In this document: piece by piece, positions 9,858 to 39,983 of the stretch
Position numbering within the stretch: the stretch's first letter is position 1
Layout of the letters: the number at the start of each line of letters is the position of its first letter
NCBI GenBank assembly: GCA_030649135.1
Contig: JAUSGI010000004.1
Location: 1-64,000 of the forward strand
DNA length: 64,000 bases
Direction of reading: 5' to 3'
Origin: a bacterium
Lineage (GTDB): Bacteria; Patescibacteriota; Minisyncoccia; Phycocordibacterales; Zambryskibacteraceae
Made by a program: the position numbers and the translations under genes
Notes under the pieces: generated by a model
Told to the model about the DNA's origin: nothing
Database searches by the model: none
Seen by the model: only the letters and a program-made list of their open reading frames with translations

Positions 9858-11333
9858 CTATTGGACTTTGTATTCCTCTCGGATTTTTTCTATTTCTTTT
9901 TCTTCGTCACTTTGATTCTTGGCACGGGCCACTTTGCCAAGTCCGGCTAACTCTTCTGATTTGAGAGCATGTAACTCCCCCACTCTGCCTTCCATGTGCT
10001 CTGGGCTGTTAAGTTTGGGGTTCTCAAGCACTTCAGAGAGGAGAATTTCCAAGATGAAACCGATATGTGGGCCCGGGCCGGCTTTGGTTAGTCTCATGAT
10101 ATCGGCGCCGTTTATGCCAAGTTGTTTAACGGAGATTGGATCACGCAGGACTTCTTCAATCATTGATTTATATTTACGCAGACGGAAAGGGGTTTCTTTG
10201 GGTCGGCCGGTGCCGATGCGGTCGCAGACCCGCAGGTCCACCAAGTCCCAAATCAAGTCAGTGCCGACATTTCTAACAATCCTCCGCACGGCGCTTAATG
10301 TGATTTTTTCGGTGTCGGAGAAGAACATGTGCCATCGCACGAGCTTCACTGCTTTCTCCACAATTTCTTTAGGGAAATGCAGGTCTGTCAAAATTGTTCT
10401 GGAAAGCCGTGCTCCAACAACCTCGTGGTTATAGAAAGTCCATTGGTTCTTAAGACGCTTTCTTGTATGGGGTTTAGCAACATCATGGGCGAAGGCGGCA
10501 AGTCGCACGTGGAGGGGAAAGTCTTTCTTAGCGGCGTGATTTAGAGTGCGGAGGAGGTGTTCCCAGACGGTGTAGGCATGAGCCTGATTTTGTTCCATAC
10601 CTATCCCCTTTTCAAACTCCGGTGAAATAAAATTCAGGAGCCCGAGGCGACTAGCCAAATCTAAAGCGAGCGCGGGTGTCTCCGACATGATAATTTTTGT
10701 AAACTCATCACGTATTCGTTCGCGGGAGATGTGTTCCAGAAGTTCGGCGTGCGTCGTTATCGCGATTTGCGTATCATGTTCTATGGCAAAGTTTAATTCA
10801 CTAGCCAAACGCAATGCCCGAAACATGCGCAGGGCATCTTCACCAAATCTTTCGTCCGGTCTGCCCACGGTGCGAATCATTTTTTTTTCAATATCTTCCA
10901 GGCCTCCAAATGGGTCAAGTAAATCTTCGGTTAGAATATTGTAAGCAAGGGCGTTCATAGTGAAGTCTCGGCGCGCCAAGTCATCTTCTATGGTTTTACC
11001 CCACTCCACTTTATCCGGTCGGCGGAAGTCAGAATATCCCGACTCGATCCGGTACGGAGTAATCTCCACGACCTTGAGAGTTTTGTCACTCGTATCTTCG
11101 TTGACTACTCCAACTGTGCCGTACTCGTTTTCATAAAATGTTTTTGGGAAGATTTTTATTATTTCCTCTGGTTTGGCATTCGTCGCGATGTCCCAGTCTT
11201 TGGGAGCTCTGCCTATGACCAAGTCTCGTACGCATCCGCCAACGAGAAAACTTTCAAATCCGGCATCGGTAAGTATGCGTGAAATGTTTTTCACTTCTTC
11301 AGGAATCTCGAATTTGTATTTTGCGTCTTTCAT
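9858..11333 (-). CDS. cca: CCA-adding tRNA nucleotidyltransferase with HD domain
   Basis: GGCVRDLVIGRAPKDWDIATNA (Pol-beta nucleotidyltransferase head), a poly(A)-polymerase-like body and a C-terminal HD region (HD…H…D). Confidence 0.9.
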   Translation of the reverse strand: MKDAKYKFEIPEEVKNISRILTDAGFESFLVGGCVRDLVIGRAPKDWDIATNAKPEEIIKIFPKTFYENEYGTVGVVNEDTSDKTLKVVEITPYRIESGYSDFRRPDKVEWGKTIEDDLARRDFTMNALAYNILTEDLLDPFGGLEDIEKKMIRTVGRPDERFGEDALRMFRALRLASELNFAIEHDTQIAITTHAELLEHISRERIRDEFTKIIMSETPALALDLASRLGLLNFISPEFEKGIGMEQNQAHAYTVWEHLLRTLNHAAKKDFPLHVRLAAFAHDVAKPHTRKRLKNQWTFYNHEVVGARLSRTILTDLHFPKEIVEKAVKLVRWHMFFSDTEKITLSAVRRIVRNVGTDLIWDLVDLRVCDRIGTGRPKETPFRLRKYKSMIEEVLRDPISVKQLGINGADIMRLTKAGPGPHIGFILEILLSEVLENPKLNSPEHMEGRVGELHALKSEELAGLGKVARAKNQSDEEKEIEKIREEYKVQ

Positions 11334-11352
11334 ATTAGTGTCCAGCGCTTTG

Positions 11353-11423
11353 TGCCCCCAGCAGGAATCGAACCCACATCACCTGTTCCGAAGACAGGTA
11401 CTTTATCCGTTAAGCTATAGGGG
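11353..11423 (-). tRNA. tRNA-Arg (anticodon TCG)
   Basis: Minus-strand cloverleaf GCCCCTATAGCTTAACGGATAAAGTACCTGTCTTCGGAACAGG…GGTTCGATTCCTGCTGGGGGCA; anticodon loop CTTCGGA. Confidence 0.8.
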
Positions 11424-11440
11424 CCTACCTGCGCAGGCAG
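11422..11440. repeat. GC-rich palindromic motif, family A, copy 2 (abuts the 5' end of tRNA-Arg)
   Basis: gcctacctgcgcaggcagg. Its reverse complement matches 19 of 20 bases with the 44728 copy. Confidence 0.5.
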
Positions 11441-11505
11441 GCAACATCGATATCGTACCTCAAAACTCGATTTTTTTCCTTTAGTACGCTATTATCTTTT
11501 CACTC

Positions 11506-11576
11506 GCGGCTATGGTTTAGTGGTAGAACACGTCCTTGCCAAGGACGAGATTCGGGTTCGATTCCCGGTAGCCGCA
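11506..11576 (+). tRNA. tRNA-Gly (anticodon GCC)
   Basis: GCGGCTATGGTTTAGTGGTAGAACACGTCCTTGCCAAGGACG…GGTTCGATTCCCGGTAGCCGCA; anticodon loop TTGCCAA. Confidence 0.85.
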
Positions 11577-11577
11577 C

Positions 11578-11648
11578 CGGGCTGTAGTACAGCGGTAGTA
11601 TACACGCTTCGGGAGTGTGAGACCCGAGTTCGATTCTCGGCAGCCCGA
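11578..11648 (+). tRNA. tRNA-Pro (anticodon CGG)
   Basis: CGGGCTGTAGTACAGCGGTAGTATACACGCTTCGGGAGTGTG…CCGAGTTCGATTCTCGGCAGCCCGA. Perfect 7-bp acceptor with C1:G72 and A73, which are Pro identity elements; loop TTCGGGA. Confidence 0.8.
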
Positions 11649-11675
11649 TGCCAAGTTTTATTAAGCACATATAGA

Positions 11676-11746
11676 CGGGCCGTCGTATACCGGTAGTATT
11701 TGCGCTTTGGGAGCGTAAGGACTGGGTTCGATTCCCAGCGGCCCGA
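11676..11746 (+). tRNA. tRNA-Pro (anticodon TGG)
   Basis: CGGGCCGTCGTATACCGGTAGTATTTGCGCTTTGGGAGCGTA…CTGGGTTCGATTCCCAGCGGCCCGA; C1:G72; loop TTTGGGA. Confidence 0.8.
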
Positions 11747-11766
11747 TAAGATACAATTAAATATGC

Positions 11767-11837
11767 CGGGCTGTGGTATAACGGTATTACTCATGGCTGG
11801 GGGTCATGCAACCCGGGTTCAACTCCCGGCAGCCCGA
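11767..11837 (+). tRNA. tRNA-Pro (anticodon GGG)
   Basis: CGGGCTGTGGTATAACGGTATTACTCATGGCTGGGGGTCATG…CCGGGTTCAACTCCCGGCAGCCCGA; C1:G72; loop CTGGGGG. Confidence 0.8.
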
Positions 11838-11846
11838 AAGAATAAT

Positions 11847-11917
11847 GCGGGATTAGTTTAATGGTAGAACAATAGATTTCCAATCTGTTGGTGGGAGTTC
11901 GATTCCCCCATCCCGCA
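11847..11917 (+). tRNA. tRNA-Gly (anticodon TCC)
   Basis: GCGGGATTAGTTTAATGGTAGAACAATAGATTTCCAATCTGT…GGGAGTTCGATTCCCCCATCCCGCA; loop TTTCCAA. Confidence 0.85.
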
Positions 11918-11921
11918 CAAA

Positions 11922-11957
11922 ATCAAAATGCTCTGGCTTGTGCTATGGCATTTTGAT
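11922..11957 (+). other. Perfect 10-bp stem hairpin immediately 3' of tRNA-Gly(TCC)
   Basis: atcaaaatgc-[16 nt]-gcattttgat. Confidence 0.5.
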
Positions 11958-12075
11958 TTATGAGGGGGAATCGAACAGGAAGGGGGTCGGGGAAACTCTA
12001 GTTTCCTCGTGGAGGAAGGCAGGGCGAAGCCCGTCGGAAAACCGTGGGTTTCCGAGGAGTGAGATAGCGAAGCGT

Positions 12076-12089
12076 CCCCCATCCCGCAC
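12076..12089 (+). repeat. Direct repeat of the tRNA-Gly(TCC) 3' end (cccccatcccgcac), second copy
   Basis: Identical 14-15-mer at 11905-11918 (inside the tRNA) and again at 12076-12089, about 160 bp apart. Confidence 0.6.
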
Positions 12090-12096
12090 CGTAGGT

Positions 12097-12534
12097 CTAA
12101 ATAATCACATTGTCGATTAGCTCTACCCTGGCCTTTCGGGTTTGGTGGTCCATTTTGACAGTTACCAGATCTAACTGCCAATCAAGCTCGAGGTTCTTTT
12201 CTAATAAGTATGTTTGAATTGCTCTAGATAATCGTTTAAGTTTCCATGGGTGCATATTGTCTTCAGGTCTGTAGTCAGACGTTCCACGCCCGCCATCGCT
12301 ACGCTCAGGCGTTAGCGGGCGGGCATGTGTGACAGGTTCATCTAAAGTTACACGAGAAACTGATTTGACCTCCACAAAATGGATGACGTTAGATTTTCTA
12401 GCCACAATATCGATTTCTCCCCACTTTCTAAGATAATTTCTTTCTATAATTTCAAATCCCCTCTTCTCTAAAAAACCACAGGCTATATTCTCTCCGATGT
12501 CTCCAAGCCTTCTTTTTTCCGTTCTATTGTCCAT
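12097..12534 (-). CDS. YraN/UPF0102-family endonuclease-like protein with C-terminal extension
   Basis: GDIGENIACGFLEKRGFEIIERNYLRKWGEIDIVARKSNVIHFVEVKS matches the UPF0102 (YraN) PD-(D/E)xK-like core. Confidence 0.7.
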   Translation of the reverse strand: MDNRTEKRRLGDIGENIACGFLEKRGFEIIERNYLRKWGEIDIVARKSNVIHFVEVKSVSRVTLDEPVTHARPLTPERSDGGRGTSDYRPEDNMHPWKLKRLSRAIQTYLLEKNLELDWQLDLVTVKMDHQTRKARVELIDNVII

Positions 12535-13109
12535 AAAGTTTCATATGAAACTCTTATTTTAAGAAAAGGGCTATAATTAAGGACATATTGGTGTGCTGTC
12601 GCTTAAATATATGTCTTTTACTCCCCATATTCCACATAATTATCCACAGTTTCGCTAATTTATGGTCTAATTCTCCTTTAAATAAAGAGCTTTTTACGTT
12701 ATAAGATTAAGGACAAAATAAGTACAGCCCCTCGACTTTGCTCGGGGTAAACAAAAACCCGCCGGCAGGCAATCTGCTAGCGGGGTGATCCCGCTAAAGC
12801 GAGATCGGGTCGCCTCAGCTCTTACGAGCTTCGGCGGACCAAGGAAGATTATCCCAGAACGAGAATAGGGCCCAGAAGATGCACGTAACCAAAAAATAAA
12901 AAAGTTGAGGGTTCGTCATCCCTGCCCAAACTCCCAAACCAGAATAAACTTCCGGTAACTGGAATGGCCTTCCAAGAACACATGCCTGGATTCCAATCTC
13001 GATTAGAGAACCGATAATATCCACCAAGCGCCTGACGACATTCTATCTTATAAAGGACAAATTTGTAAGCACAAAGTTGTGGATAACTTTTGTCCTTTAT
13101 AATATGGCT

Positions 13110-27130: not shown

Positions 27131-28885
27131 ATGCATATTGACGAAAATAAGCTTGAGAGTTTTATGATGGACTCGGGTCTGGTCTCTAAGAAGGAGATTG
27201 AGCTCGCTAAAAGTGAAATTAAGGGCAAAGATACGAGTATCGGAGAAGCGTTGGTGAACAAGGGCGCTTTAACCGAAGATGATTTGCGCCGAATGCAGGC
27301 CTATATTCTCGGTATCCCTTTCGTTGACCTGAAGAATCAGAAACTCGATTTCTCCGTGCTCTCTCTTATTCCCGAGCCCATTGCGAGAAATCACAACATT
27401 ATTGCTTTCAGAAAGATTGAGGACAGTCTGGAAGTAGCCATGCTTGATACCGAAGACCTGACGGCCATCGATTTTGTTAAAAAGAAAGTGGGGCTTAAAA
27501 TCTTGCCTCGTCTGACGGATGACGAATCTATGAAGTGGGCATTACTTTCTTACCAGAAGACGCTTAAAGCGGAATTCGGGGACATCATTCAGAAAGAAGC
27601 CAACTCGCTTAGAGCCATGAGCGACAAAATTGGCGGAGAGGATATCACTGAAGGGGACCTAAAAAAACTGGCCGAGGATATACCGGTGGTACGCATTGTC
27701 GACACGCTCTTGAAACACGCTATCATTCAAGATGCTTCCGATATTCATATTGAACCGGAGGAGGATAAGGTGTTGGTGCGCTATCGCATAGACGGCATCT
27801 TGCGCGACGCCATGATTTTGCCGAAGAATACCGCCTCCGGCATCACCGCTCGTATCAAGGTGTTATCCAGTCTAAAGCTCGACGAGAAGCGGGTGCCGCA
27901 GGATGGCCGTTTTAAGATTGATGCCGGAGGCGAGAAGGTTTCTTTCAGAGTTTCCACTCTACCGGTTTATTATGGCGAGAAGACGGTCATGCGTCTTTTG
28001 CGCGAGAGCGTTTCCGGTTTTACTTTAGAGAGTCTCGGGTTTCATGGGCACGGTCTCGATAGTTTGCATAAATCGCTCAAGGCGACTACCGGCATGATTC
28101 TTGCCACCGGTCCGACCGGCTCCGGCAAAACTACTACTCTCTACACCATGCTCGATATTGTTAATACTCCAAACGTTAACATCTCCACCATCGAAGACCC
28201 TGTCGAATATCAGATGATGCGCATCAACCAGACTCAAGTACGTCCGGAAATTGGTCTCACCTTTGCCAACGGCCTGCGCACTCTGGTGCGCCAGGACCCG
28301 GACATTATCATGGTCGGAGAAATCCGCGACAACGAGACGGCGGCGCTGGCTATCAACGCATCACTCACCGGTCACTTGGTGCTCTCGACTCTCCACACCA
28401 ATTCCGCAGCAGGTGCTATCCCGAGGCTCTTAGACATGAAAGTTGAACCATTTCTCCTAGTTTCTACTTTGAATATTGTGATTGCTCAACGTTTGGTCAG
28501 AAAGCTTTCGGCCTCGAAGACCAAGTATTTTCTAAACAAGGGGGAACTAGCCTCGCTTGGCAATGTTATCTCACTTGAGAGAATGCTCGGTCTCCTTAGG
28601 GCCGAGAAGATTATCGGTGAGAAAGACGGTTTCGATAAAATTCCGTTTTGGAAGCCGACTCCCGGCAAAGACAGCGAAGACGGTTATTCAAGTCGTATCG
28701 GTATTCACGAAGTGCTCACGGTGACGCCGACTGTGAAAAACTTGATTATGAAAGGGGCGACGGCAGGGGAGATAGAGGAGCGGGCGACATCGGAGGGCAT
28801 GATGACGATGATTGAAGACGGCATTTTCAAAGCGGCGCAAGGTATTACCACTATAGAAGAGGTCTTAAGAGTGGTGTCGGAATAA
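27131..28885 (+). CDS. pilB: Type IV pilus assembly ATPase PilB / GspE family
   Basis: Walker A GPTGSGKTTTLYTML, Asp box, His box and a GspE N-terminal domain. Confidence 0.9.
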   Translation: MHIDENKLESFMMDSGLVSKKEIELAKSEIKGKDTSIGEALVNKGALTEDDLRRMQAYILGIPFVDLKNQKLDFSVLSLIPEPIARNHNIIAFRKIEDSLEVAMLDTEDLTAIDFVKKKVGLKILPRLTDDESMKWALLSYQKTLKAEFGDIIQKEANSLRAMSDKIGGEDITEGDLKKLAEDIPVVRIVDTLLKHAIIQDASDIHIEPEEDKVLVRYRIDGILRDAMILPKNTASGITARIKVLSSLKLDEKRVPQDGRFKIDAGGEKVSFRVSTLPVYYGEKTVMRLLRESVSGFTLESLGFHGHGLDSLHKSLKATTGMILATGPTGSGKTTTLYTMLDIVNTPNVNISTIEDPVEYQMMRINQTQVRPEIGLTFANGLRTLVRQDPDIIMVGEIRDNETAALAINASLTGHLVLSTLHTNSAAGAIPRLLDMKVEPFLLVSTLNIVIAQRLVRKLSASKTKYFLNKGELASLGNVISLERMLGLLRAEKIIGEKDGFDKIPFWKPTPGKDSEDGYSSRIGIHEVLTVTPTVKNLIMKGATAGEIEERATSEGMMTMIEDGIFKAAQGITTIEEVLRVVSE

Positions 28886-28917
28886 TTTAAAATTTTCAAT
28901 TAATTTTTACTTAAATA

Positions 28918-29298
28918 ATGACCCAAATTGACAGAAAATACGATTTAGAAGAAAGGACAGCATTGTTCGGAGAATCAGTAATAAAATTATGCAGAAATAT
29001 TAAGCAAGATAATGTCATATATCCGATTGTCGGACAGCTTATCCGATCCTCGACCAGTATCGGCGCTAATTATATGGAAGCTAACGGAGCTAGTTCTAAA
29101 AAAGATTTTGTCAGTAAAATTTTCATTTGTAAAAAAGAGTCCCAAGAAACAAAGCACTGGCTAAGAATGCTTAATTCTTGTGGAATAGAATCAATTTCTC
29201 TTAATTTGTCTCCAATGCAGAAAGAATGTCAGGAATTAATTTTTATTTTTACAAAAATTGCCAGCTCGTCTCGTGCCAATCAGCAACTCACCAACTAA
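28918..29298 (+). CDS. Four-helix-bundle protein of the 23S rRNA intervening-sequence (IVS) protein family
   Basis: GQLIRSSTSIGANYMEANGASSKKDFVSKIFICKKESQETKHWLRM matches the IVS-protein core (…IPANIAEG.GR.S.KEF..FL.IA.GS..E…HL). Confidence 0.7.
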   Translation: MTQIDRKYDLEERTALFGESVIKLCRNIKQDNVIYPIVGQLIRSSTSIGANYMEANGASSKKDFVSKIFICKKESQETKHWLRMLNSCGIESISLNLSPMQKECQELIFIFTKIASSSRANQQLTN

Positions 29299-29373
29299 CC
29301 TCTTTTTTATTGTATAATTAATTCATTGAGAATTTAATGGAAATTGAAAATTCTAAATTGAAAATTACTCCCC

Positions 29374-30585
29374 ATGTCTCTCTACAAATATAAAGCCAAG
29401 GATAAGGAAGGTCAGGTATACGAACGTACGCTCGAGGTCAAAAATCGCTCCGACTTGTATGGTGTGATTCGCGAGGAAGGCGGTAGTGTGGTTTCTATTC
29501 AAGAGCTCAAAAGTTTTACTCCCTTGATTTCTCTCGGCAATATATTGGGCGGCGTCAAAACTCATCAAAAAATTACTTTTGCCAAAAACCTTGGTCTGAT
29601 GATGACCGCCGGTTTGCCGGTAACCCGCGCTCTCTCCGTGATGAGCAAACAATCGAAAAGTAAACCATTCAAAAAGTTACTCTCTGACCTCGAAGAAGAT
29701 GTTAGCCACGGCAAAACTCTTTCTGAATCGTTGGGTAAACGGCCCAAAGTGTTTTCCGCGCTTTTTATTTCTATGGTTAAGGCCGGCGAAGAATCGGGTT
29801 CCGTCTCGGCCTCACTTGGCATTGTCGCAAACCAGATGGAGAAGTCTTACCTCTTGGCGAAGAAGGTGCGTGGCGCGCTTATTTATCCGGCAGTGATTAT
29901 CTCGGTCATGATTATCCTTGCCATTCTCCTGCTCATTTTCATGGTGCCTACTTTGACCGCCACTTTTGAGGGCATTGGGGTCAAGTTGCCTTTGTCCACA
30001 CGGGTGCTCATCGCTGTTAGCGGTTTTCTGGTGGACTATACGCTTCCCGTGGTTGCCGGACTTATCGCGCTTTTGGTTTCTTCCGTTCTATTCATACGCA
30101 GTGGTATTGGTCGGAATCTGACGGACATAATTTCCCTGCGTATCCCGGTCATTGGCGAGTTGGTCAAGGAAGTCCAAGTGGCTCGTACCGCACGCACACT
30201 CTCCTCGCTCCTCTCCGCAGGTGTGCAGATTGTGGTGGCGCTTGAGGTGACTAGCGAAGTTTTACAAAACCATCTCTACCGAAGCGCGATCGAGCGCGCA
30301 CGTGATGCTATCCAGAAGGGGGAGCCGATGTCGGCGGTCTTTGTTGAATATGAGCGTCTCTACCCGCTTTTTGTTGGCGAGATGGTGGCTGTGGGCGAAG
30401 AGACCGGTAAAATCGCGGAAATGCTCATGGGCGTCGCAAACTATTACGAGGAAGAGGTGGACCAGAAGACCAAAGACCTCTCGACCATTATTGAACCGAT
30501 ATTGATGATTATCATCGGTATTGGAGTGGGCATCTTCGCCATTTCGATGCTTGCACCGACTTATTCTCTGGTGGATTACATTTAA
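29374..30585 (+). CDS. pilC: Type IV pilus inner-membrane platform protein PilC / GspF family
   Basis: Two GspF repeats and three TM segments; typical PilC length and motifs. Confidence 0.9.
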   Translation: MSLYKYKAKDKEGQVYERTLEVKNRSDLYGVIREEGGSVVSIQELKSFTPLISLGNILGGVKTHQKITFAKNLGLMMTAGLPVTRALSVMSKQSKSKPFKKLLSDLEEDVSHGKTLSESLGKRPKVFSALFISMVKAGEESGSVSASLGIVANQMEKSYLLAKKVRGALIYPAVIISVMIILAILLLIFMVPTLTATFEGIGVKLPLSTRVLIAVSGFLVDYTLPVVAGLIALLVSSVLFIRSGIGRNLTDIISLRIPVIGELVKEVQVARTARTLSSLLSAGVQIVVALEVTSEVLQNHLYRSAIERARDAIQKGEPMSAVFVEYERLYPLFVGEMVAVGEETGKIAEMLMGVANYYEEEVDQKTKDLSTIIEPILMIIIGIGVGIFAISMLAPTYSLVDYI

Positions 30586-30590
30586 TCTTT

Positions 30591-31049
30591 ATGAAAGACA
30601 AAGGATTTAGCATGCTCGAAATCCTTTTGGTCCTTTTTATACTATCGCTCGTGGTTGCCATGGTCGCTTTCTCATTTTCTAAATTTAATTCTTCCAAAGC
30701 GCTCAACCAGAGCGCCTCTTTAGTCGTCGCCATTTTGGATGAGGCGCGGTCTCTCACGCTTTCTTCGGTTGATGCTTCCGGGTATGGTGTTAATTTCCAA
30801 GAATCGCAAGTGGTGTTGTTTAAGGGCGTCACTTATTCACCGTCTGACCCATCAAATGTAGTTACCGATATTAACGCCCTGGTAAATCTTCGCAACATTG
30901 TTCTCTCCGGCGGGGGTACAAGCGTAGTTTTTAAACGTCTGACCGGTAACACGGACGAGGCGGGTACGGTGGAAGTGTTTCTCAAAGCTACGCCAGAAAT
31001 TTTTCGTACCGTCAGTATCAGCAATACGGGAGTGGCGGCATCGAACTGA
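30591..31049 (+). CDS. Prepilin-type N-terminal cleavage/methylation domain protein (pilin or pseudopilin)
   Basis: KGFSMLEILLVLFILSLVVAMV: G|F(S/T)LxE class III signal. Confidence 0.75.
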   Translation: MKDKGFSMLEILLVLFILSLVVAMVAFSFSKFNSSKALNQSASLVVAILDEARSLTLSSVDASGYGVNFQESQVVLFKGVTYSPSDPSNVVTDINALVNLRNIVLSGGGTSVVFKRLTGNTDEAGTVEVFLKATPEIFRTVSISNTGVAASN

Positions 31050-31058
31050 CATCTATTT

Positions 31059-31550
31059 ATGAAAAATCCCCAAAAACATTTGAATCGCGGCCTAACTTTG
31101 GTGGAGGTGTTGATTGCCACTTCTATTATCCTGATTTTCCTCATGGCATTGCTCGGTGCCCATAATCTTTACCTCAAAACCGCCTTGGCGAACGGTGAAG
31201 TGGTCAAGGGGGCTTATCTGGCCGAGGAAGGCGCGGAAGTCGTCCGATTTCTGAGAGATTCTTCTTGGGATACCAATATTGCGTCACTTTCTCTAGACAC
31301 GGATTACTATCTGGTTTGGTCAGGGGGAGCCTGGCAGGTCACTACCGCCGAGACTCTCATAGATTCTGTCTTCGAGAGAACAATAACTCTTTCCGCGGTT
31401 TATCGTGACGCTTCCGCTGACATTGTTTCGTCAGGCGGGACGCTTGACCCGGACACTTTGATGGTAGTCTCGAGCGTGTCTTGGCCCAAAAATGGGATAA
31501 CCACCACCAAATCGATTTCGACTTATATCACTAATATCTTTGATGACTGA
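31059..31550 (+). CDS. Prepilin-type N-terminal domain protein (minor pilin)
   Basis: NRGLTLVEVLIATSIILIFLMALLG prepilin motif. Confidence 0.7.
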   Translation: MKNPQKHLNRGLTLVEVLIATSIILIFLMALLGAHNLYLKTALANGEVVKGAYLAEEGAEVVRFLRDSSWDTNIASLSLDTDYYLVWSGGAWQVTTAETLIDSVFERTITLSAVYRDASADIVSSGGTLDPDTLMVVSSVSWPKNGITTTKSISTYITNIFDD

Positions 31551-32058
31551 CATGCCGTACTCCTTCTATCGTCGCGGATTTTCTTTGGTGGAGATGCTTA
31601 TTTATATTTCTATTCTGGTTCTCATGCTTGCCGTTATCATGAACGTGATCGTTTCCATGACTGGCGCAGAGCGGGTGATTAAAGCTTTAAGAAATATAGA
31701 AAATTCCGCTACAGTAGGTCTGGAGCGTGTGGTGAGAGAAACACGGCAGGCCGAGAACATCAATGTCGCTTCGAGTATTCTCGGTTCAGATCCTGGCACG
31801 CTCGTGCTCAATGGCACTGATGCTCTCGGTAATCCGCGGGTTGTAGAGTTTTATCTCTCCTCGGGTAAACTTTTACTGAAGGAAAATGGAGTAGAAGTCG
31901 GGGCCCTGACTCAGGAGGATGCCCAGGTCAGCGGTTTGATTTTTTACCTGTTTTCCGCATCGGATGTCGAAGGTGTCAGAACCGAAATGACGATTGAAAG
32001 TGGTACCAGCACTTATTATCGTTCCGAAAAGTTTTATGCCTCGGCGCTTTTACGTTAG
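31540..32058 (+). CDS. Prepilin-type N-terminal domain protein (minor pilin)
   Basis: RRGFSLVEMLIYISILVLMLAVIMNV prepilin motif. Confidence 0.7.
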   Translation: MMTDMPYSFYRRGFSLVEMLIYISILVLMLAVIMNVIVSMTGAERVIKALRNIENSATVGLERVVRETRQAENINVASSILGSDPGTLVLNGTDALGNPRVVEFYLSSGKLLLKENGVEVGALTQEDAQVSGLIFYLFSASDVEGVRTEMTIESGTSTYYRSEKFYASALLR

Positions 32059-38099: not shown

Positions 38100-38554
38100 C
38101 TATTATTTACACAGATGGGGCGTCGAGGGGAAACCCTGGACCGGGGGGGTGGGGGGCAATAATTTCGAACGACAATTCCGTGGTAGAAATTGGCGGAAGG
38201 GAAGAGCATACGACAAATAACCGCATGGAACTTACGGCGGCAATCAAAGCTCTAGAATCGACACCGGATAAAGAAGTTACCGTTTACGCGGATTCGGAAT
38301 ATGTGACGAAGGGCATGACCGAATGGATCAAGAGATGGCAACAGAAAGGCTGGAGGACGGCAGGTAAGAAGCCGGTACTCAGCCAAGATTTATGGCAGAA
38401 ACTCCTCGAGCTTACGGAGGGAAGACGAGTGGAGTGGAAATATGTGGCAGGACATGCCGGTGTGCCTCTCAATGAGCGCGCGGACGAGATAGCTACCACT
38501 TTTGCCGATAATCTTCTACCCAAACTTTATAATGGACCAAGAGGTAAGTACTAA
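38096..38554 (+). CDS. rnhA: Ribonuclease HI
   Basis: IYTDGASRGNPGPGGWGAII…TNNRMELTAAIKALE…; DEDD catalytic residues in RNase H order. Confidence 0.9.
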   Translation: MTIIYTDGASRGNPGPGGWGAIISNDNSVVEIGGREEHTTNNRMELTAAIKALESTPDKEVTVYADSEYVTKGMTEWIKRWQQKGWRTAGKKPVLSQDLWQKLLELTEGRRVEWKYVAGHAGVPLNERADEIATTFADNLLPKLYNGPRGKY

Positions 38555-39983
38555 AAGTATTTTCGTATTTATATTTGGTTCTATCTTCGGTATTCTGATT
38601 TCTTCTTTTGTTTTTATTGCTCCGCTGGTGGGCGTTTTGTTTATCATTATCGGTTCGGCCTTACTTAATGTGGAGAAACTTTGGAATAAAATAATAAATA
38701 AAGAAGTTTTATTTCTCTCTCTTGCGTTTCTATCGTTCGGCCTCGGTGTCCTGCGTTATTCGATTAAAGATTTTCACGAGCCGCTCGTTCCAACTTTCCA
38801 AGGCGTTGTTATAAGCGAGCCGGAACAGGGAGAAAATACTACTCGTTTTGTCTTGCGGACAGACAATGGCGAAAAAGTTTTAGTGAGTACGGATTTGTAT
38901 AGTGCTGTGCAGTATGGAGATGATGTTAAGGCCGCAGGTAAGCTGGAAAAGCCGGGTATTATTGATAATGATACCGGCCGGCCGTTTAATTATGCCGAGT
39001 ATCTTTCGAAAGACGATATTTATTACACTCTAAGTTTTGCGAAAGTCGAAATTTTGTCACACGACCACGGCAATCCCGCGAAGAGCATTCTCTTGAAGAT
39101 AAAAAGGAGTTTCGTAGCCAAAACCAAAGAAATTCTGGCCGAGCCATATGCTAGCCTGCTTTCTGGTCTCATTGTTTCAGGCAAGGAAGCGATGCCGAAA
39201 AATATTCTCGAAGAGTTTCGTCGGGCCGGCATCATACATATCGTGGTACTCTCCGGCTATAACATCACTATCATTGCGGAGTTTGTGAGAACGGTGTTTA
39301 GAAGCGCAGGGTTCTCTATCGTAGGAATTATTCTCTTTGTCATTATGACGGGAGCGCAAGCCACGGTTGTGCGCGCGGCACTTATGGTACTTGCGGTGAT
39401 TCTCGCTAAGGTTTTTCATAGAAAGTTTTCGGCTCCCAGAGCGCTTCTCGTTGCGGCCTTCTTAATGCTTCTCCAGAATCCGAAAATTCTTGTCTTTGAC
39501 CCGTCTTTTCAACTTTCGTTTCTTGCGACTCTCGGCTTAATTTATGTTGTGCCTATAGTCGACCGGTATTTAAAATGGATACCGGGGAAGTGGGGTCTGC
39601 GGGTGGCCATTGCCACTACCTTAGCTACCCAAGTGACCGTTCTGCCCTTCCTCATCTATTCTATGGGTAATGTTTCTTTAGTGTCGCTTCCTGCCAATAT
39701 TATGATTTTGCTCATCATACCCGCCACCATGCTTGCGGGCTTTGTCGCAACACTTGTTGCATACGTAAGTTCTGTCTTAGCCTTACCATTTTCTTACATA
39801 GCCCATCTTCTTTTGGCTTGGATTCTCGGTGTTTCTCACTATCTCGGTAGTTTTTCTTTCGCTTCTATTGCTGTTCCACCTGTGCCCTGGTGGTTAGTGG
39901 TTTTGATTTACCTTGCGATAGTTATTTTTATACAGCGTTGGAAACCTAACGGAGTGGCATATGATACTGTAAACAAGATATGA
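38502..39983 (+). CDS. comEC: ComEC/Rec2-family competence protein, N-terminal part (DUF4131 plus competence domain; lacks the MBL domain)
   Basis: Polytopic membrane protein with a ComEC core region; it ends without the metallo-beta-lactamase domain. The start may be internal (MDQEVSTKS…), because the 5' end overlaps rnhA. Confidence 0.7.
   Translation: MPIIFYPNFIMDQEVSTKSIFVFIFGSIFGILISSFVFIAPLVGVLFIIIGSALLNVEKLWNKIINKEVLFLSLAFLSFGLGVLRYSIKDFHEPLVPTFQGVVISEPEQGENTTRFVLRTDNGEKVLVSTDLYSAVQYGDDVKAAGKLEKPGIIDNDTGRPFNYAEYLSKDDIYYTLSFAKVEILSHDHGNPAKSILLKIKRSFVAKTKEILAEPYASLLSGLIVSGKEAMPKNILEEFRRAGIIHIVVLSGYNITIIAEFVRTVFRSAGFSIVGIILFVIMTGAQATVVRAALMVLAVILAKVFHRKFSAPRALLVAAFLMLLQNPKILVFDPSFQLSFLATLGLIYVVPIVDRYLKWIPGKWGLRVAIATTLATQVTVLPFLIYSMGNVSLVSLPANIMILLIIPATMLAGFVATLVAYVSSVLALPFSYIAHLLLAWILGVSHYLGSFSFASIAVPPVPWWLVVLIYLAIVIFIQRWKPNGVAYDTVNKI

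Follow-up and report, generated by a model that had tools for sequence, protein, structure and literature searches.

Prophages, ICEs and genomic islands that depend on a tyrosine integrase, and their gene-less derivatives (CIMEs), enter the 3′ part of tRNA genes. They carry a replacement for the gene end, and the tRNA gene remains intact, with a flanking repeat of its end and with empty sites in relatives. The insertion found beside tRNA-Gly(TCC) in the window, that is, the whole 64-kb stretch of DNA analysed here, resembles these elements in all of these points, and its flanking repeat and empty sites are those of a tRNA island. However, it is 171 bp long and has no cargo, and no integrase or island genes were found between the repeats. 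In addition, unlike in the integrase elements, the target is specific to each copy, and an internal inverted copy of the target and a structured core are present.

CTXφ/IMEX elements and integron attC sites fold through two inverted arms into a stem like the double-stranded target, with a mismatched centre, and the present element resembles them in this respect. After exchange, the parts of CTXφ/IMEX follow in the order left half-site, right arm, loop, inverted arm, rest of the element, imperfect left arm and native right half-site, which matches the order seen here. Those systems act at a fixed site (dif or attI) through XerCD or IntI, whereas the stem of the present element consists of target sequence, its targets are tRNA and protein genes rather than dif, and its single-strand intermediate is a putative one. 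The Rfam attC model gave no match to the element.

Target-complementary sequences beside a structured scaffold are found within several pairing-guided elements. The guides are tetranucleotides in IS200/IS605, bridge or seek RNAs in IS110/IS1111, omega RNAs in TnpB/IscB, EBS-IBS pairing in group II introns, and internal guide sequences in group I introns. The present element has the same combination and, like them, a strand-specific hairpin structure. It differs in that no protein gene is carried, the complement is longer (11-29 nt), the end of the target is duplicated, and the scaffold is unrelated and has no Rfam match. IS200/IS605 derivatives (PATE) enter 3′ of a fixed tetra- or pentanucleotide and leave no duplication; here, no common target motif was found and a long duplication is present.

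MITEs, Correia/NEMIS, RPE, REP/BIME and RUP are, like this element, small, non-coding, structured, multi-copy and patchy, and are tolerated in or by genes. Their terminal inverted repeats are fixed and their duplications short and of constant length, whereas the terminal inverted sequences of the present element are derived from the target and vary with it (X′ and X″ below), and its duplication, with a repeat of 7 to ≥35 nt, reaches the gene end. Casposons reportedly enter tRNA or EF-2 genes at the 3′ end, where they give rise to duplications of 14-15 bp. Insertion at a tRNA 3′ end with duplication is common to both, but casposons are large and have fixed terminal inverted repeats, whereas Cas1 is absent here and the repeat varies from 7 to >35 nt. 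A description of the element was not found in full-text literature searches, consensus strings included, and this family of small structured mobile elements in Patescibacteria is apparently undescribed.

The tRNA array and the 171-bp insertion

Six tRNA genes were called by both ARAGORN and the Rfam tRNA model RF00005 (51-71 bits; gathering score 29), in agreement with the array and the anticodons of the original prediction. These genes and their neighbours are as follows.

9858-11333, minus strand: gene of the CCA-adding enzyme (Pfam PolyA_pol, PolyA_pol_RNAbd and HD)
11352-11424, minus strand: tRNA-Arg(TCG) (ARAGORN; Rfam tRNA, 64 bits)
11506-11576, plus strand: tRNA-Gly(GCC), 1 nt before the next tRNA (ARAGORN; Rfam, 70.7 bits)
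11578-11648, plus strand: tRNA-Pro(CGG), with C1:G72 and A73 (ARAGORN, Rfam)
11676-11746, plus strand: tRNA-Pro(TGG), with C1:G72 and A73 (ARAGORN, Rfam)
11767-11837, plus strand: tRNA-Pro(GGG), with C1:G72 and A73 (ARAGORN, Rfam)
11847-11917, plus strand: tRNA-Gly(TCC), the insertion target, intact (ARAGORN; Rfam, 68.7 bits)
12097-12534, minus strand: YraN-like (UPF0102) gene, the convergent native neighbour of tRNA-Gly (Pfam PF02021, E 4e-18)

The plus-strand tRNA genes are separated by 1, 27, 20 and 9 nt, and CCA is encoded in none of the six genes of the array. In the Rfam alignments, all three Pro genes start with CGGG and end with CCCGA, which gives the predicted C1:G72 pair and A73. The set of three Pro genes had been regarded as unusual; in fact it is typical of the lineage, since the same Arg-Gly-Pro-Pro-Pro-Gly cluster is found beside cca in L003-L009 and L016. 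The T-stem of the target tRNA-Gly(TCC) has an A52.C62 mismatch, which is also present in relatives without the insert. The genes neighbouring the insert are cca, yraN and exoIII. The exact YraN protein was found on a single contig of 98 kb, and identity to the next relative is 77%.

Comparison with related genomes revealed the empty site in five of them (L001, L008, L004, L007 and L016). In these alignments the yraN stop codon lies 3-14 nt after tRNA-Gly(UCC); for an empty allele of the window, the predicted junction is ...TCCCCCATCCCGCAC joined to CGTAGGTCTAAATAA. This means that positions 11919-12089 of the plus strand, which separate the two genes in the window, are a 171-bp insertion, the length of which is exactly the period of the repeat. 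The distribution is patchy: at the cca locus the element is present in 6 of 80 related species and is absent from the closest relatives. The parts of the insertion and of the adjoining tRNA end are as follows.

11897-11909, plus strand: X, T-loop and 3′ strand of the T-stem of the tRNA, GTTCGATTCCCCC (exact complement of X′)
11904-11918, plus strand: copy 1 of the direct repeat TCCCCCATCCCGCAC, the working tRNA 3′ end (repeat search)
11920-11959, plus strand: h, an AT-rich hairpin (12-bp arms 11920-11931 and 11948-11959, 16-nt loop)
11964-11976, plus strand: X′, guide-like inverted copy of the target, GGGGGAATCGAAC (perfect 13-nt inverted repeat of 11897-11909)
11975-12058, plus strand: conserved core (covariance model R1, 81.7 bits, E 2e-22)
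11977-11987, plus strand: purine-rich junction of the core
11988-12009, plus strand: hairpin P1 of the core
12009-12019, plus strand: junction GTGGAGGAAGG of the core
12020-12034, plus strand: optional hairpin P1a of the core
12034-12055, plus strand: hairpin P2 of the core
12059-12065, plus strand: degenerate T-loop copy GTGAGAT (part of the altered segment 12059-12074)
12066-12074, plus strand: GCGAAGC-type mini-hairpin AGCGAAGCG (part of the same altered segment)
12075-12089, plus strand: X″, copy 2 of the direct repeat, the displaced tRNA 3′ end (repeat search and empty-site alignment)

The direct repeat, predicted as 14-15 nt of the tRNA 3′ end, is exact over 15 nt, with 171 nt from start to start. 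Two matches to it were found in 0 of 100 shuffles, by which a chance origin is rejected. Copy 2 runs directly into the flank seen at the empty sites. The predicted hairpin after the tRNA is also present, but its arms are 12 bp long, not 10. The T-loop-like fragment noticed on the other strand is the perfect 13-nt inverted copy X′; that this copy is matched to the target and changes with the upstream gene had been missed. X′ was also considered as a copy of the 5′ strand of the T-stem, left by a partial tandem duplicate of the tRNA. This was rejected for the window, because X′ has GGGGG, the complement of CCCCC, and not the GGGAG of the tRNA.

X′ is able to pair with X upstream or with X″ downstream. 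The duplex energies in the window are -26.8 kcal/mol for X:X′ and -14.4 kcal/mol for X′:X″. The hairpin h prolongs the X:X′ pairing, and the altered segment breaks the X′:X″ pairing just left of the exact repeat. The GCGAAGC module of this segment is also found in L086, L099, L111, L120, L140, L146, L147, L168, L174, L194, L200 and L065. No protein-like ORF, integrase fragment or promoter was found in the 171-bp insert, and no intrinsic terminator in 11300-12650; h, being AT-rich with a 16-nt loop, departs from the terminator consensus. The covariance model R1 detected one copy of the element in the window.

A family of target-matched elements

A pattern scan gave at least 120 metagenome loci with elements of this family, which are non-coding, 130-200 nt long and found in Patescibacteria. 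The match of the window element to the covariance model extends over the whole model length. It is very probable, in our judgement, that the insertion is lineage-specific and a full-length member of this large family.

On the element strand, the end of the target gene (X and the remaining gene) is followed in every member by the optional hairpin h, by X′ as an inverted copy of 11-29 nt of the element's own target, and by the conserved core, which consists of two covarying hairpins and purine-rich junctions. Further on there are 3-4 nt copied from the target, then either 2-5 altered nucleotides or a GCGAAGC mini-hairpin, and finally X″, which repeats the target exactly or almost exactly up to the gene end. 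The gene end is present twice; therefore, the target gene stays intact. The alteration is always at the left edge of the exact repeat, the right edge of which coincides with gene ends. The median length of the exact repeat is 10 nt and the range 7 to >35 nt (15 nt in the window, 20 nt in L113, 29 nt in L162 and 35 nt in L188). The exact X:X′ match has a median of 11 nt and a maximum of 29 nt, and X:X′ is often a long perfect palindrome. A three-way comparison showed that the reverse complement of X′ corresponds to the left part of X and X″ to the right part, with an overlap of 5-10 nt. The family duplex energies were -25.1 kcal/mol for X:X′ and -16.2 kcal/mol for X′:X″, compared with -14.3 (sd 4.4) and -9.9 (sd 3.9) kcal/mol, respectively, for permuted partners. 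The two pairings are mutually exclusive.

Conserved motifs close to the ends of conserved genes serve as targets. Among the tRNAs, more than 30 species are targeted, mostly at the T-loop; a tRNA on the same strand lies <150 nt 5′ of the core in 78 of the 129 listed cores, with 31 anticodons. The non-tRNA targets, confirmed by Pfam, are the gene ends of L33, S9, L11, MurD, UvrC, RNase H and GT4 glycosyltransferase. The GT4 targets are on the strand opposite to the element, which lies upstream of and antisense to the GT4 genes. One target lies on the opposite strand, which means that recognition takes place at the DNA level. At L143, the 5′ end of an RNase H gene, the geometry is mirrored. Two copies of the element per 13 kb were found in L034, L056 and L065. 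Copies of the same genome at different tRNAs share idiosyncratic core features (copies a and b of L065; plus and minus copies of L034), and this is apparently recent retargeting.

In the family alignment, 98.7% of the core cells are paired. A compensatory change is seen in 94 cells, compared with 31.3 (sd 3.9) in shuffles, and 0 of 500 shuffles reached 94. G.U outnumbers A.C by 18 to 5, and in 70 of 97 cores the better fold is that of the plus strand (p = 1e-9); both RNA and top-strand DNA are compatible with this asymmetry. The hairpins covary, the loops are of the GNRA type, and the junctions are rich in Shine-Dalgarno-like purines. Folding of the window element as a single sequence was no better than that of shuffles (z = -0.37); therefore, the structure rests on the family covariation and not on the window sequence.

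A small ORF in the core was rejected, as variable insertions disrupt every reading frame. No Rfam match was found for the spacer, at the gathering threshold in the window or at E up to 10 in 11300-13100; these scans returned only tRNAs and chance miRNA-like hairpin matches. Group I and II introns and the hammerhead, hairpin, HDV-like, twister and pistol ribozymes, for all of which Rfam is known to have models, were unmatched. A tmRNA, a minus-strand tRNA-like gene and an SRP RNA had no support from ARAGORN or Rfam, and the strand bias favours the plus strand. In the most cautious reading, the core is a new covariation-supported structured RNA or DNA motif with >120 members and without an Rfam entry. 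A second family (type B) has a different core, for which no Rfam match was found either, and the same architecture.

Possible routes of insertion

The explanation that we prefer joins the family insertion described above with integration as a folded single strand. The former is the observed part, with the high confidence already given. The latter, in which movement is guided by pairing of X′, is tentative and is modelled on the CTXφ/IMEX analogy. Taken as a whole, the explanation is slightly favored.

In its moving form the element would be single-stranded and folded, most likely as a DNA circle with the predicted junction ...GTGAGATAGCGAAGCG joined to TCCCCCATCCCGCACAAAATCAAAATGC. In the circle, the pairing partners of X′ would be the 3-4-nt target copy, the altered segment and the gene end borne by the element. 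The stem so formed would mimic the double-stranded target, save for a small bubble, and a single strand exchange might take place at this bubble (here between ...GTTCGAT and TCCCCC...). The exchange would bring the element-borne gene end up against the gene body, with the native end displaced downstream; together, these two ends would make up the 15-nt repeat. The topology would be that of CTXφ/IMEX integration, with specificity arising from base pairing of X′ rather than from a fixed protein site. Quasi-palindrome correction in the X:X′ hairpin might maintain the match of X′ to its resident target. The element does have a target-mimicking stem with an unpaired centre, and its parts follow the predicted order.

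The putative enzyme would act in trans. The 39 ORFs tested in the window yielded no recombinase, transposase, HUH endonuclease or reverse transcriptase, and all those with Pfam matches are housekeeping. Nor does any such enzyme recur within 4 kb of the elements at the metagenome loci. A LAGLIDADG endonuclease, the one mobile-type ORF that does recur, lies by tRNA clusters; it is probably intron-encoded and shows no tie to the element. Of 128 matches, 0 were autonomous copies in which an ORF separates the target from X′. ComEC and type IV pilus genes are among those of the window, which makes uptake of single-stranded DNA plausible.

It is possible, though doubtful, that these are programmable mobile elements, in which X′ sets the site by pairing and the spare gene end spares essential genes. 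An enzyme of Patescibacteria, or the structured core itself, would then perform the strand exchange at the bubble. Given that two unrelated cores share one architecture, the systems would then amount to a new class of guided integration.

The protein-gene targets bear on the origin of the two gene ends. Copies 1 and 2 of L33 (7 loci) show 49 synonymous and 8 non-synonymous codon differences, where neutral decay of one copy would give approximately 2:3. The N-terminal copies of GT4, on the opposite strand, show the same mostly synonymous pattern, and the copies of both genes diverge by up to 31% in nucleotides. The distance of copy 2 tracks that of the gene body (rho 0.47, p 0.01), whereas that of copy 1 does not (rho 0.21). 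From these protein-gene targets we infer that copy 1 in the window is the element-borne one. The two L33 copies have locus-specific amino acids in common. This would be expected from transfer among close relatives and equally from the use of both ends, which would point to reversible excision or RNA-level removal.

Alternatively, staggered nicks might be filled in, in the copy-and-paste manner of SINE, casposon or spacer integration, so that both repeats come from the resident target and X′ arises by fold-back synthesis or is carried as a guide. Many repeats are exact (from 15 nt in the window to 35 nt in L188), their variable length of 7 to >35 nt is as in target-primed insertion, and the long perfect X:X′ palindromes are as expected from snap-back synthesis. 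Furthermore, both copies at the plus element of L034 carry the unusual acceptor base of the resident tRNA (AGCCGC), and X′ matches the commoner ACCCGC allele. This route is nevertheless unlikely, since fresh duplication followed by decay predicts mostly non-synonymous differences, contrary to the L33 and GT4 copies. The coincidence of the right repeat edge with gene ends and the systematic alteration of 2-5 nt at the left edge of copy 2 also argue against it, and no reverse transcriptase or Cas1 gene was found near the elements. CCA follows the discriminator in 6 of 64 cases of copy 1 and 6 of 57 of copy 2. Without such asymmetry, an RNA-derived copy is unsupported, and an origin of copy 1 from mature tRNA via reverse transcription was rejected.

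An intron-like RNA element seems less likely still. X′ would be an internal guide that pairs with a 5′ exon (X) and a 3′ exon (X″), and removal of the element would join the gene body to copy 2, both gene ends being used. The protein-level selection on both L33 copies, with their locus-specific residues in common, would agree with this, as would the complementarity of X′ to a continuous junction-spanning stretch, comparable to P1 and P10 of group I introns. The covarying hairpins, GNRA-type loops and sense-strand G.U bias of the core point the same way, and tRNA group I introns are abundant in Patescibacteria (bioRxiv 10.1101/2025.07.03.662931). However, the unspliced RNA already encodes an intact product, and the core is only 60-90 nt long and matches no Rfam ribozyme or intron at E up to 10. 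The GT4 targets show the same synonymous pattern on the opposite strand, which means that the sense RNA of the element cannot belong to the GT4 mRNA. The empty sites imply insertion with duplication, which intron gain does not produce.

We regard as improbable a cis-acting RNA that benefits the host in 3′-end processing, termination or regulation and is spread by homologous recombination. It would account for the orientation with the upstream tRNA in 78 of the 129 listed cores, for the switch-like exclusion between X:X′ and X′:X″, and for the Shine-Dalgarno-like purines, and competence genes are present in the host. It is contradicted by the patchy distribution at the cca locus, by the lack of any terminator or promoter consensus there, and by the position upstream of and antisense to GT4 genes. 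In addition, the X:X′ duplex would sequester the T-arm of the tRNA, and matched inverted and direct copies at unrelated genes require templated insertion.

The original prediction took the locus for the decayed remnant of a kb-scale integrase island or prophage with attL and attR. The insertion footprint at the 3′ part of the tRNA stands, with its repeat and the empty sites in five relatives, and a tRNA 3′-end repeat that starts in the T-loop is reportedly, in the 2002 account attributed to Williams, the classic identity block of T-loop-class integrase sites. The reduction of a large element is unsupported and highly improbable, in view of at least 120 members of the same size and order of parts, a full-length covariance-model match, two exact and undecayed repeats, no ORF or integrase fragment in the insert, and >30 different targets, each with its own matched X′; 171 bp is a normal full size. 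A phage or plasmid origin of the spacer found no backing in the databases, as blastn gave no match to phage or plasmid records and no similarity to IMG/VR contigs was seen; five IMG/VR pattern matches were coding-sequence false positives.

Significance for Patescibacteria genomes

If the folded single-strand explanation is true, these elements would be an abundant, overlooked class of tiny mobile elements in small-genome Patescibacteria, in which harm is avoided by replacing the end of the entered gene. The choice of target would apparently lie in a short complementary sequence and not in a protein, a fully non-coding addition to the integration systems that choose their targets by base pairing. 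The putative strand-transfer activity would be worth seeking. Annotators would be able to spot duplicated ends of tRNA and other genes in metagenome-assembled genomes, and the small structured insertions 3′ of several tRNA genes of these genomes, with further unclassified ones in L061 and L029, would be explained.

The tRNA array and the insertion after tRNA-Gly(TCC)

Six tRNA genes are called at this locus by both ARAGORN and the Rfam tRNA model, arranged as in the original prediction, and the yraN-like gene expected downstream encodes a UPF0102/YraN protein.

Genes of the array (each tRNA gene called by ARAGORN and Rfam) and its flanks
9858-11333, minus strand, CCA-adding enzyme, flanking the array
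11352-11424, minus strand, tRNA-Arg(TCG)
11506-11576, plus strand, tRNA-Gly(GCC)
11578-11648, plus strand, tRNA-Pro(CGG)
11676-11746, plus strand, tRNA-Pro(TGG)
11767-11837, plus strand, tRNA-Pro(GGG)
11847-11917, plus strand, tRNA-Gly(TCC)
12097-12534, minus strand, UPF0102/YraN protein, flanking the array

CCA is encoded in none of the six tRNA genes, and all three Pro genes carry C1:G72 and A73, as predicted. With the CCA protein as query, 80 loci were collected from Patescibacteria (Parcubacteria, Candidatus Zambryskibacteria and relatives), the best of which showed 86% identity. The Arg-Gly-Pro-Pro-Pro-Gly cluster next to cca is kept in the nearer relatives (L003-L009, L016), including all three Pro isoacceptors. 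This means that the full Pro set, which had been considered unusual, is typical of the lineage. Single tRNA genes of the cluster switch orientation among the related genomes (L001-L080, upstream of the cca match), and in more distant relatives the tRNA genes are kept apart by insertions of about 1 kb.

The predicted direct repeat of the tRNA 3' end, TCCCCCATCCCGCAC, is 15 nt long and exact (11904-11918 and 12075-12089); a repeat pair of this kind was found in 0 of 100 shuffles. The hairpin 3' of tRNA-Gly(TCC) is also present, with 12 bp (11920-11931 with 11948-11959) instead of the predicted 10. The T-loop-like fragment noticed on the other strand, GGGGGAATCGAAC (11964-11976), repeats without mismatch, in inverted orientation, the T-loop and T-stem 3' strand of the tRNA (11897-11909). 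In five relatives (L001, L008, L004, L007, L016), 3-14 nt separate the tRNA-Gly(UCC) end ...CCCGCAC from the yraN stop region (TAAATAATCAC...). The window has 171 additional bases (11919-12089) exactly at this empty-site point, and the native flank picks up again past the second repeat copy. The proposed integration footprint is thus supported, and the segment is very probably a mobile insertion belonging to a family of small structured elements. The suggested search for mobile-element relatives gave no similarity in phage and plasmid collections.

The element family, its anatomy and its core

Searching with the spacer (blastn) detected relatives at other Parcubacteria loci, each directly 3' of a tRNA gene. 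A core pattern (GGGTCGG, gap 12-26, GTGGAGGAAGG, gap 2-30, GGAAAACC) matches at least 120 metagenome contigs; in IMG/VR, a looser pattern gave coding-sequence false positives only. Among the matches listed, 78 of 129 cores have a same-strand tRNA less than 150 nt upstream, with 31 anticodons represented. Targets of the remaining cores include tRNA-like ends not called by ARAGORN, 3' ends of the ribosomal protein genes for L33, S9 and L11 and of the MurD and UvrC genes, RNase H gene 5' ends, and the N-terminal coding region of GT4 glycosyltransferase genes, on the strand opposite to the element. A covariance model built from 59 cores has a single match in the window (11975-12058, full length, 81.7 bits, E 2e-22) and, over the 80 related cca loci, finds copies in six species only. 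No Rfam family matches the core.

The members share one order of parts on the element strand: the target segment at the gene end (X), the remaining gene end, an optional hairpin h (AT-rich or CGAAG-type), the inverted copy X', a purine-rich junction AGGAAAGGGGU, hairpin P1, a junction GUGGAGGAAGG, an optional hairpin P1a, hairpin P2 (GGGAAAACC-GUG-GGUUUCCC), AG with about 2 nt, a 3-4-nt copy of the left part of the target, 2-5 altered nucleotides or a GCGAAGC mini-hairpin, and the direct target repeat up to the gene end. The repeat extends 0-9 nt beyond the 3' end at tRNA targets and reaches the stop codon or terminator at protein-gene targets. At T-loop targets, the altered segment takes the place of the loop centre: GTTC-GAA-TCC becomes GTTC-TTA-TCC, or has -TA-, -CA- or -GCG- there. 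The altered segment of the window is GTGAGAT followed by AGCGAAGCG.

X' consists of 11-29 nt of the particular target of each element, inverted. Its reverse complement matches the left part of X, and the second, direct copy X'' matches the right part, with an overlap of 5-10 nt. Pairing of X' is much stronger with its own partners than with permuted partners: -25.1 versus -14.3 kcal/mol (sd 4.4) for X:X', and -16.2 versus -9.9 kcal/mol (sd 3.9) for X':X''.

Comparative evidence indicates that the core is a real structure. In the core alignment, 98.7% of cells are paired, as against only 25-73% in slid controls, and changes on both sides of a pair occur in 94 cells against 31.3 (sd 3.9) in shuffles, none of 500 being as high. 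Compensatory changes are found at five of the eight P1 pairs and at one P2 pair, the other P2 pairs being fixed by the search pattern. Core pairs include 18 G.U against 5 A.C, and in 70 of 97 cores (p = 1e-9) folding is better for the element strand than for its complement, so the folded strand is the tRNA-sense strand, as RNA or as top-strand DNA. The element of the window, folded alone, was no better than shuffles.

Two further arrangements were observed. In L188 (~1900-2330), two tandem elements follow tRNA-Gln(CTG), with a 38-45-nt partial tRNA copy between them, from the anticodon loop to the 3' end; these insertions are therefore nested. At RNase H gene 5' ends (L143 ~2560-2760, also L166), the geometry is mirrored: the displaced copy, on the left, pairs with X' as a perfect hairpin with a 4-nt loop, and the functional copy is right of the core.

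Duplicated gene ends and the putative route of integration

In seven L33 loci (L155, L156, L162, L170, L175, L185, L193), the last 14 codons of the two copies differ by 49 synonymous and 8 non-synonymous codons, at 7-31% nucleotide divergence; neutral decay of one copy would give a ratio of about 2:3. The same pattern is seen in the N-terminal GT4 copies, which lie on the opposite strand. Mere decay of a duplicate thus does not account for the displaced copy, and protein-level selection has shaped both gene-end copies. As the GT4 genes are targeted in antisense orientation to the element, targets must be recognised at the DNA level. Distances of the copy displaced downstream of the core track those of the gene body (rho 0.47, p 0.01), whereas those of the copy joined to the gene body do not (rho 0.21). 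This weakly favours the displaced copy as the native end and the joined copy as the element-borne end. Locus-specific amino acids are common to both L33 copies, which fits exchange among close relatives and, equally, use of both ends. The junction makes an ATG in frame with the displaced L33 copy in L155, and a TTG in L156.

We classify the element as site-specific and integrative, restoring the gene that it targets. The order of parts corresponds one to one to what a single-stranded circle would leave if it integrated in folded form, the route of CTXphi and other IMEX elements. The site of CTXphi is fixed, whereas here it is whatever X' matches; X' thus looks like a guide. Within the free element, X' would be base-paired to three segments: the short copy of the target's left part, the altered segment and the gene end that the element carries. 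The resulting stem would equal the target sequence apart from a central bubble and would be capped by h at one end and the core at the other. If strands were then exchanged once at the bubble, the product would have exactly the order that is seen, with the gene body followed by the element-borne gene end, h, X', the core, the left-part copy, the altered segment and the native gene end. Such a guide-directed, folded-strand mechanism, which we put forward tentatively, would account for X:X' pairing being longer and better than X':X'', for the alteration at the repeat edge, and for an intact gene whose end copies can be different alleles. X' could be kept matched to the resident X by quasi-palindrome correction.

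Elements at different tRNAs of one genome share idiosyncratic core features (a common P2 insertion in L065 a and b, 40 identical nucleotides in L034 + and -), and have therefore been retargeted recently. Window ORFs with a Pfam match are all housekeeping, for example NusA, ClpP, RNase Y, type IV pilus genes, ComEC, RecJ, EF-G and EF-Tu. None of the 39 window ORFs tested is an integrase, transposase or reverse transcriptase; no enzyme for the proposed integration was found among them, and none is recurrent within 4 kb of the metagenome elements. The window also has a type IV pilus set (PilB-like ATPase, PilC-like protein, three pseudopilins) and ComEC (27131-32058, 38502-39983), and the organism therefore probably takes up single-stranded DNA, which bears on a possible route of spread for small elements.

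Copy-and-paste insertion with a fresh target duplication explains some features, namely the exact repeats of variable length and the case of L034+, in which the resident allele is in both copies but not in X'; the synonymous-only divergence and the systematic alteration are left unexplained. An intron-like RNA element would explain selection on both gene-end copies, but the GT4 targets are antisense, the core is tiny, and empty sites show insertion with duplication. Against a host-beneficial processing or regulatory module stand the patchy distribution of the elements and their antisense placements. A decayed integrase island, the reduced remnant of the original prediction, fits poorly with the constant small size of the members, the full-length covariance match, the exact repeats and the lack of any gene remnant. 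A reverse-transcribed tRNA was tested as the source of the copy, with a negative result.

A full-text literature search, consensus strings included, found no description of the element. The nearest report from Patescibacteria concerns group I introns at position 35/36 of the anticodon loop (bioRxiv 10.1101/2025.07.03.662931), which are different from the present family. The site-specific integrative element described here might represent a new class of pairing-guided integration.

Other candidates around tRNA genes

A second family, type B, lies 3' of tRNAs and has an unrelated core (AAGCGGAGCGGGCACC...GGTCGCGAGC...GACGGCGAGG...), to which Rfam gave no match.

Type B elements
L079, 5228-5400
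L050, 5736-5843
L029, 3276-3358
L065, 3601-3652
L062, 1140-1228
L036, ~2498-2531

Its architecture is that of the first family, with a palindrome at the tRNA 3' end, a T-loop copy in inverted orientation and a direct repeat; the repeat of L029 is exact over 28 nt. As the cores are unrelated, the architecture is independent of any one core sequence. Further small insertions lie between tRNA-Gly(GCC) and tRNA-Arg in L061 (5717-5876) and L029 (5600-5877); L076 has only a 27-nt spacer there. The tRNA 3' flanks look like insertion hot spots in this clade. LAGLIDADG-type endonuclease ORFs occur beside or within tRNA clusters (L145 3837-4643, L153 1408-2214, L123 792-1541, L134 222-947 and others), and tRNA-like 3' ends without an ARAGORN call in L113, L127, L137, L141 and L146; both agree with reports of intron-bearing tRNAs in Patescibacteria.

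In the window, a 575-nt gap between yraN and an exoIII-like gene (12535-13109) shows DNA-level conservation in relatives, with 76% identity to L008 over 532 nt and 70% to L001. A GC-rich structured block lies within it (~12727-12850), and its minus strand folds with z = -3.9. Rfam gave no match to the gap, even with an E limit of 10, and the gap is a candidate for an unannotated non-coding RNA. Its minus strand carries GAGCAAAGUCGAGGGGC, which we take to resemble the P4 sequence of RNase P.
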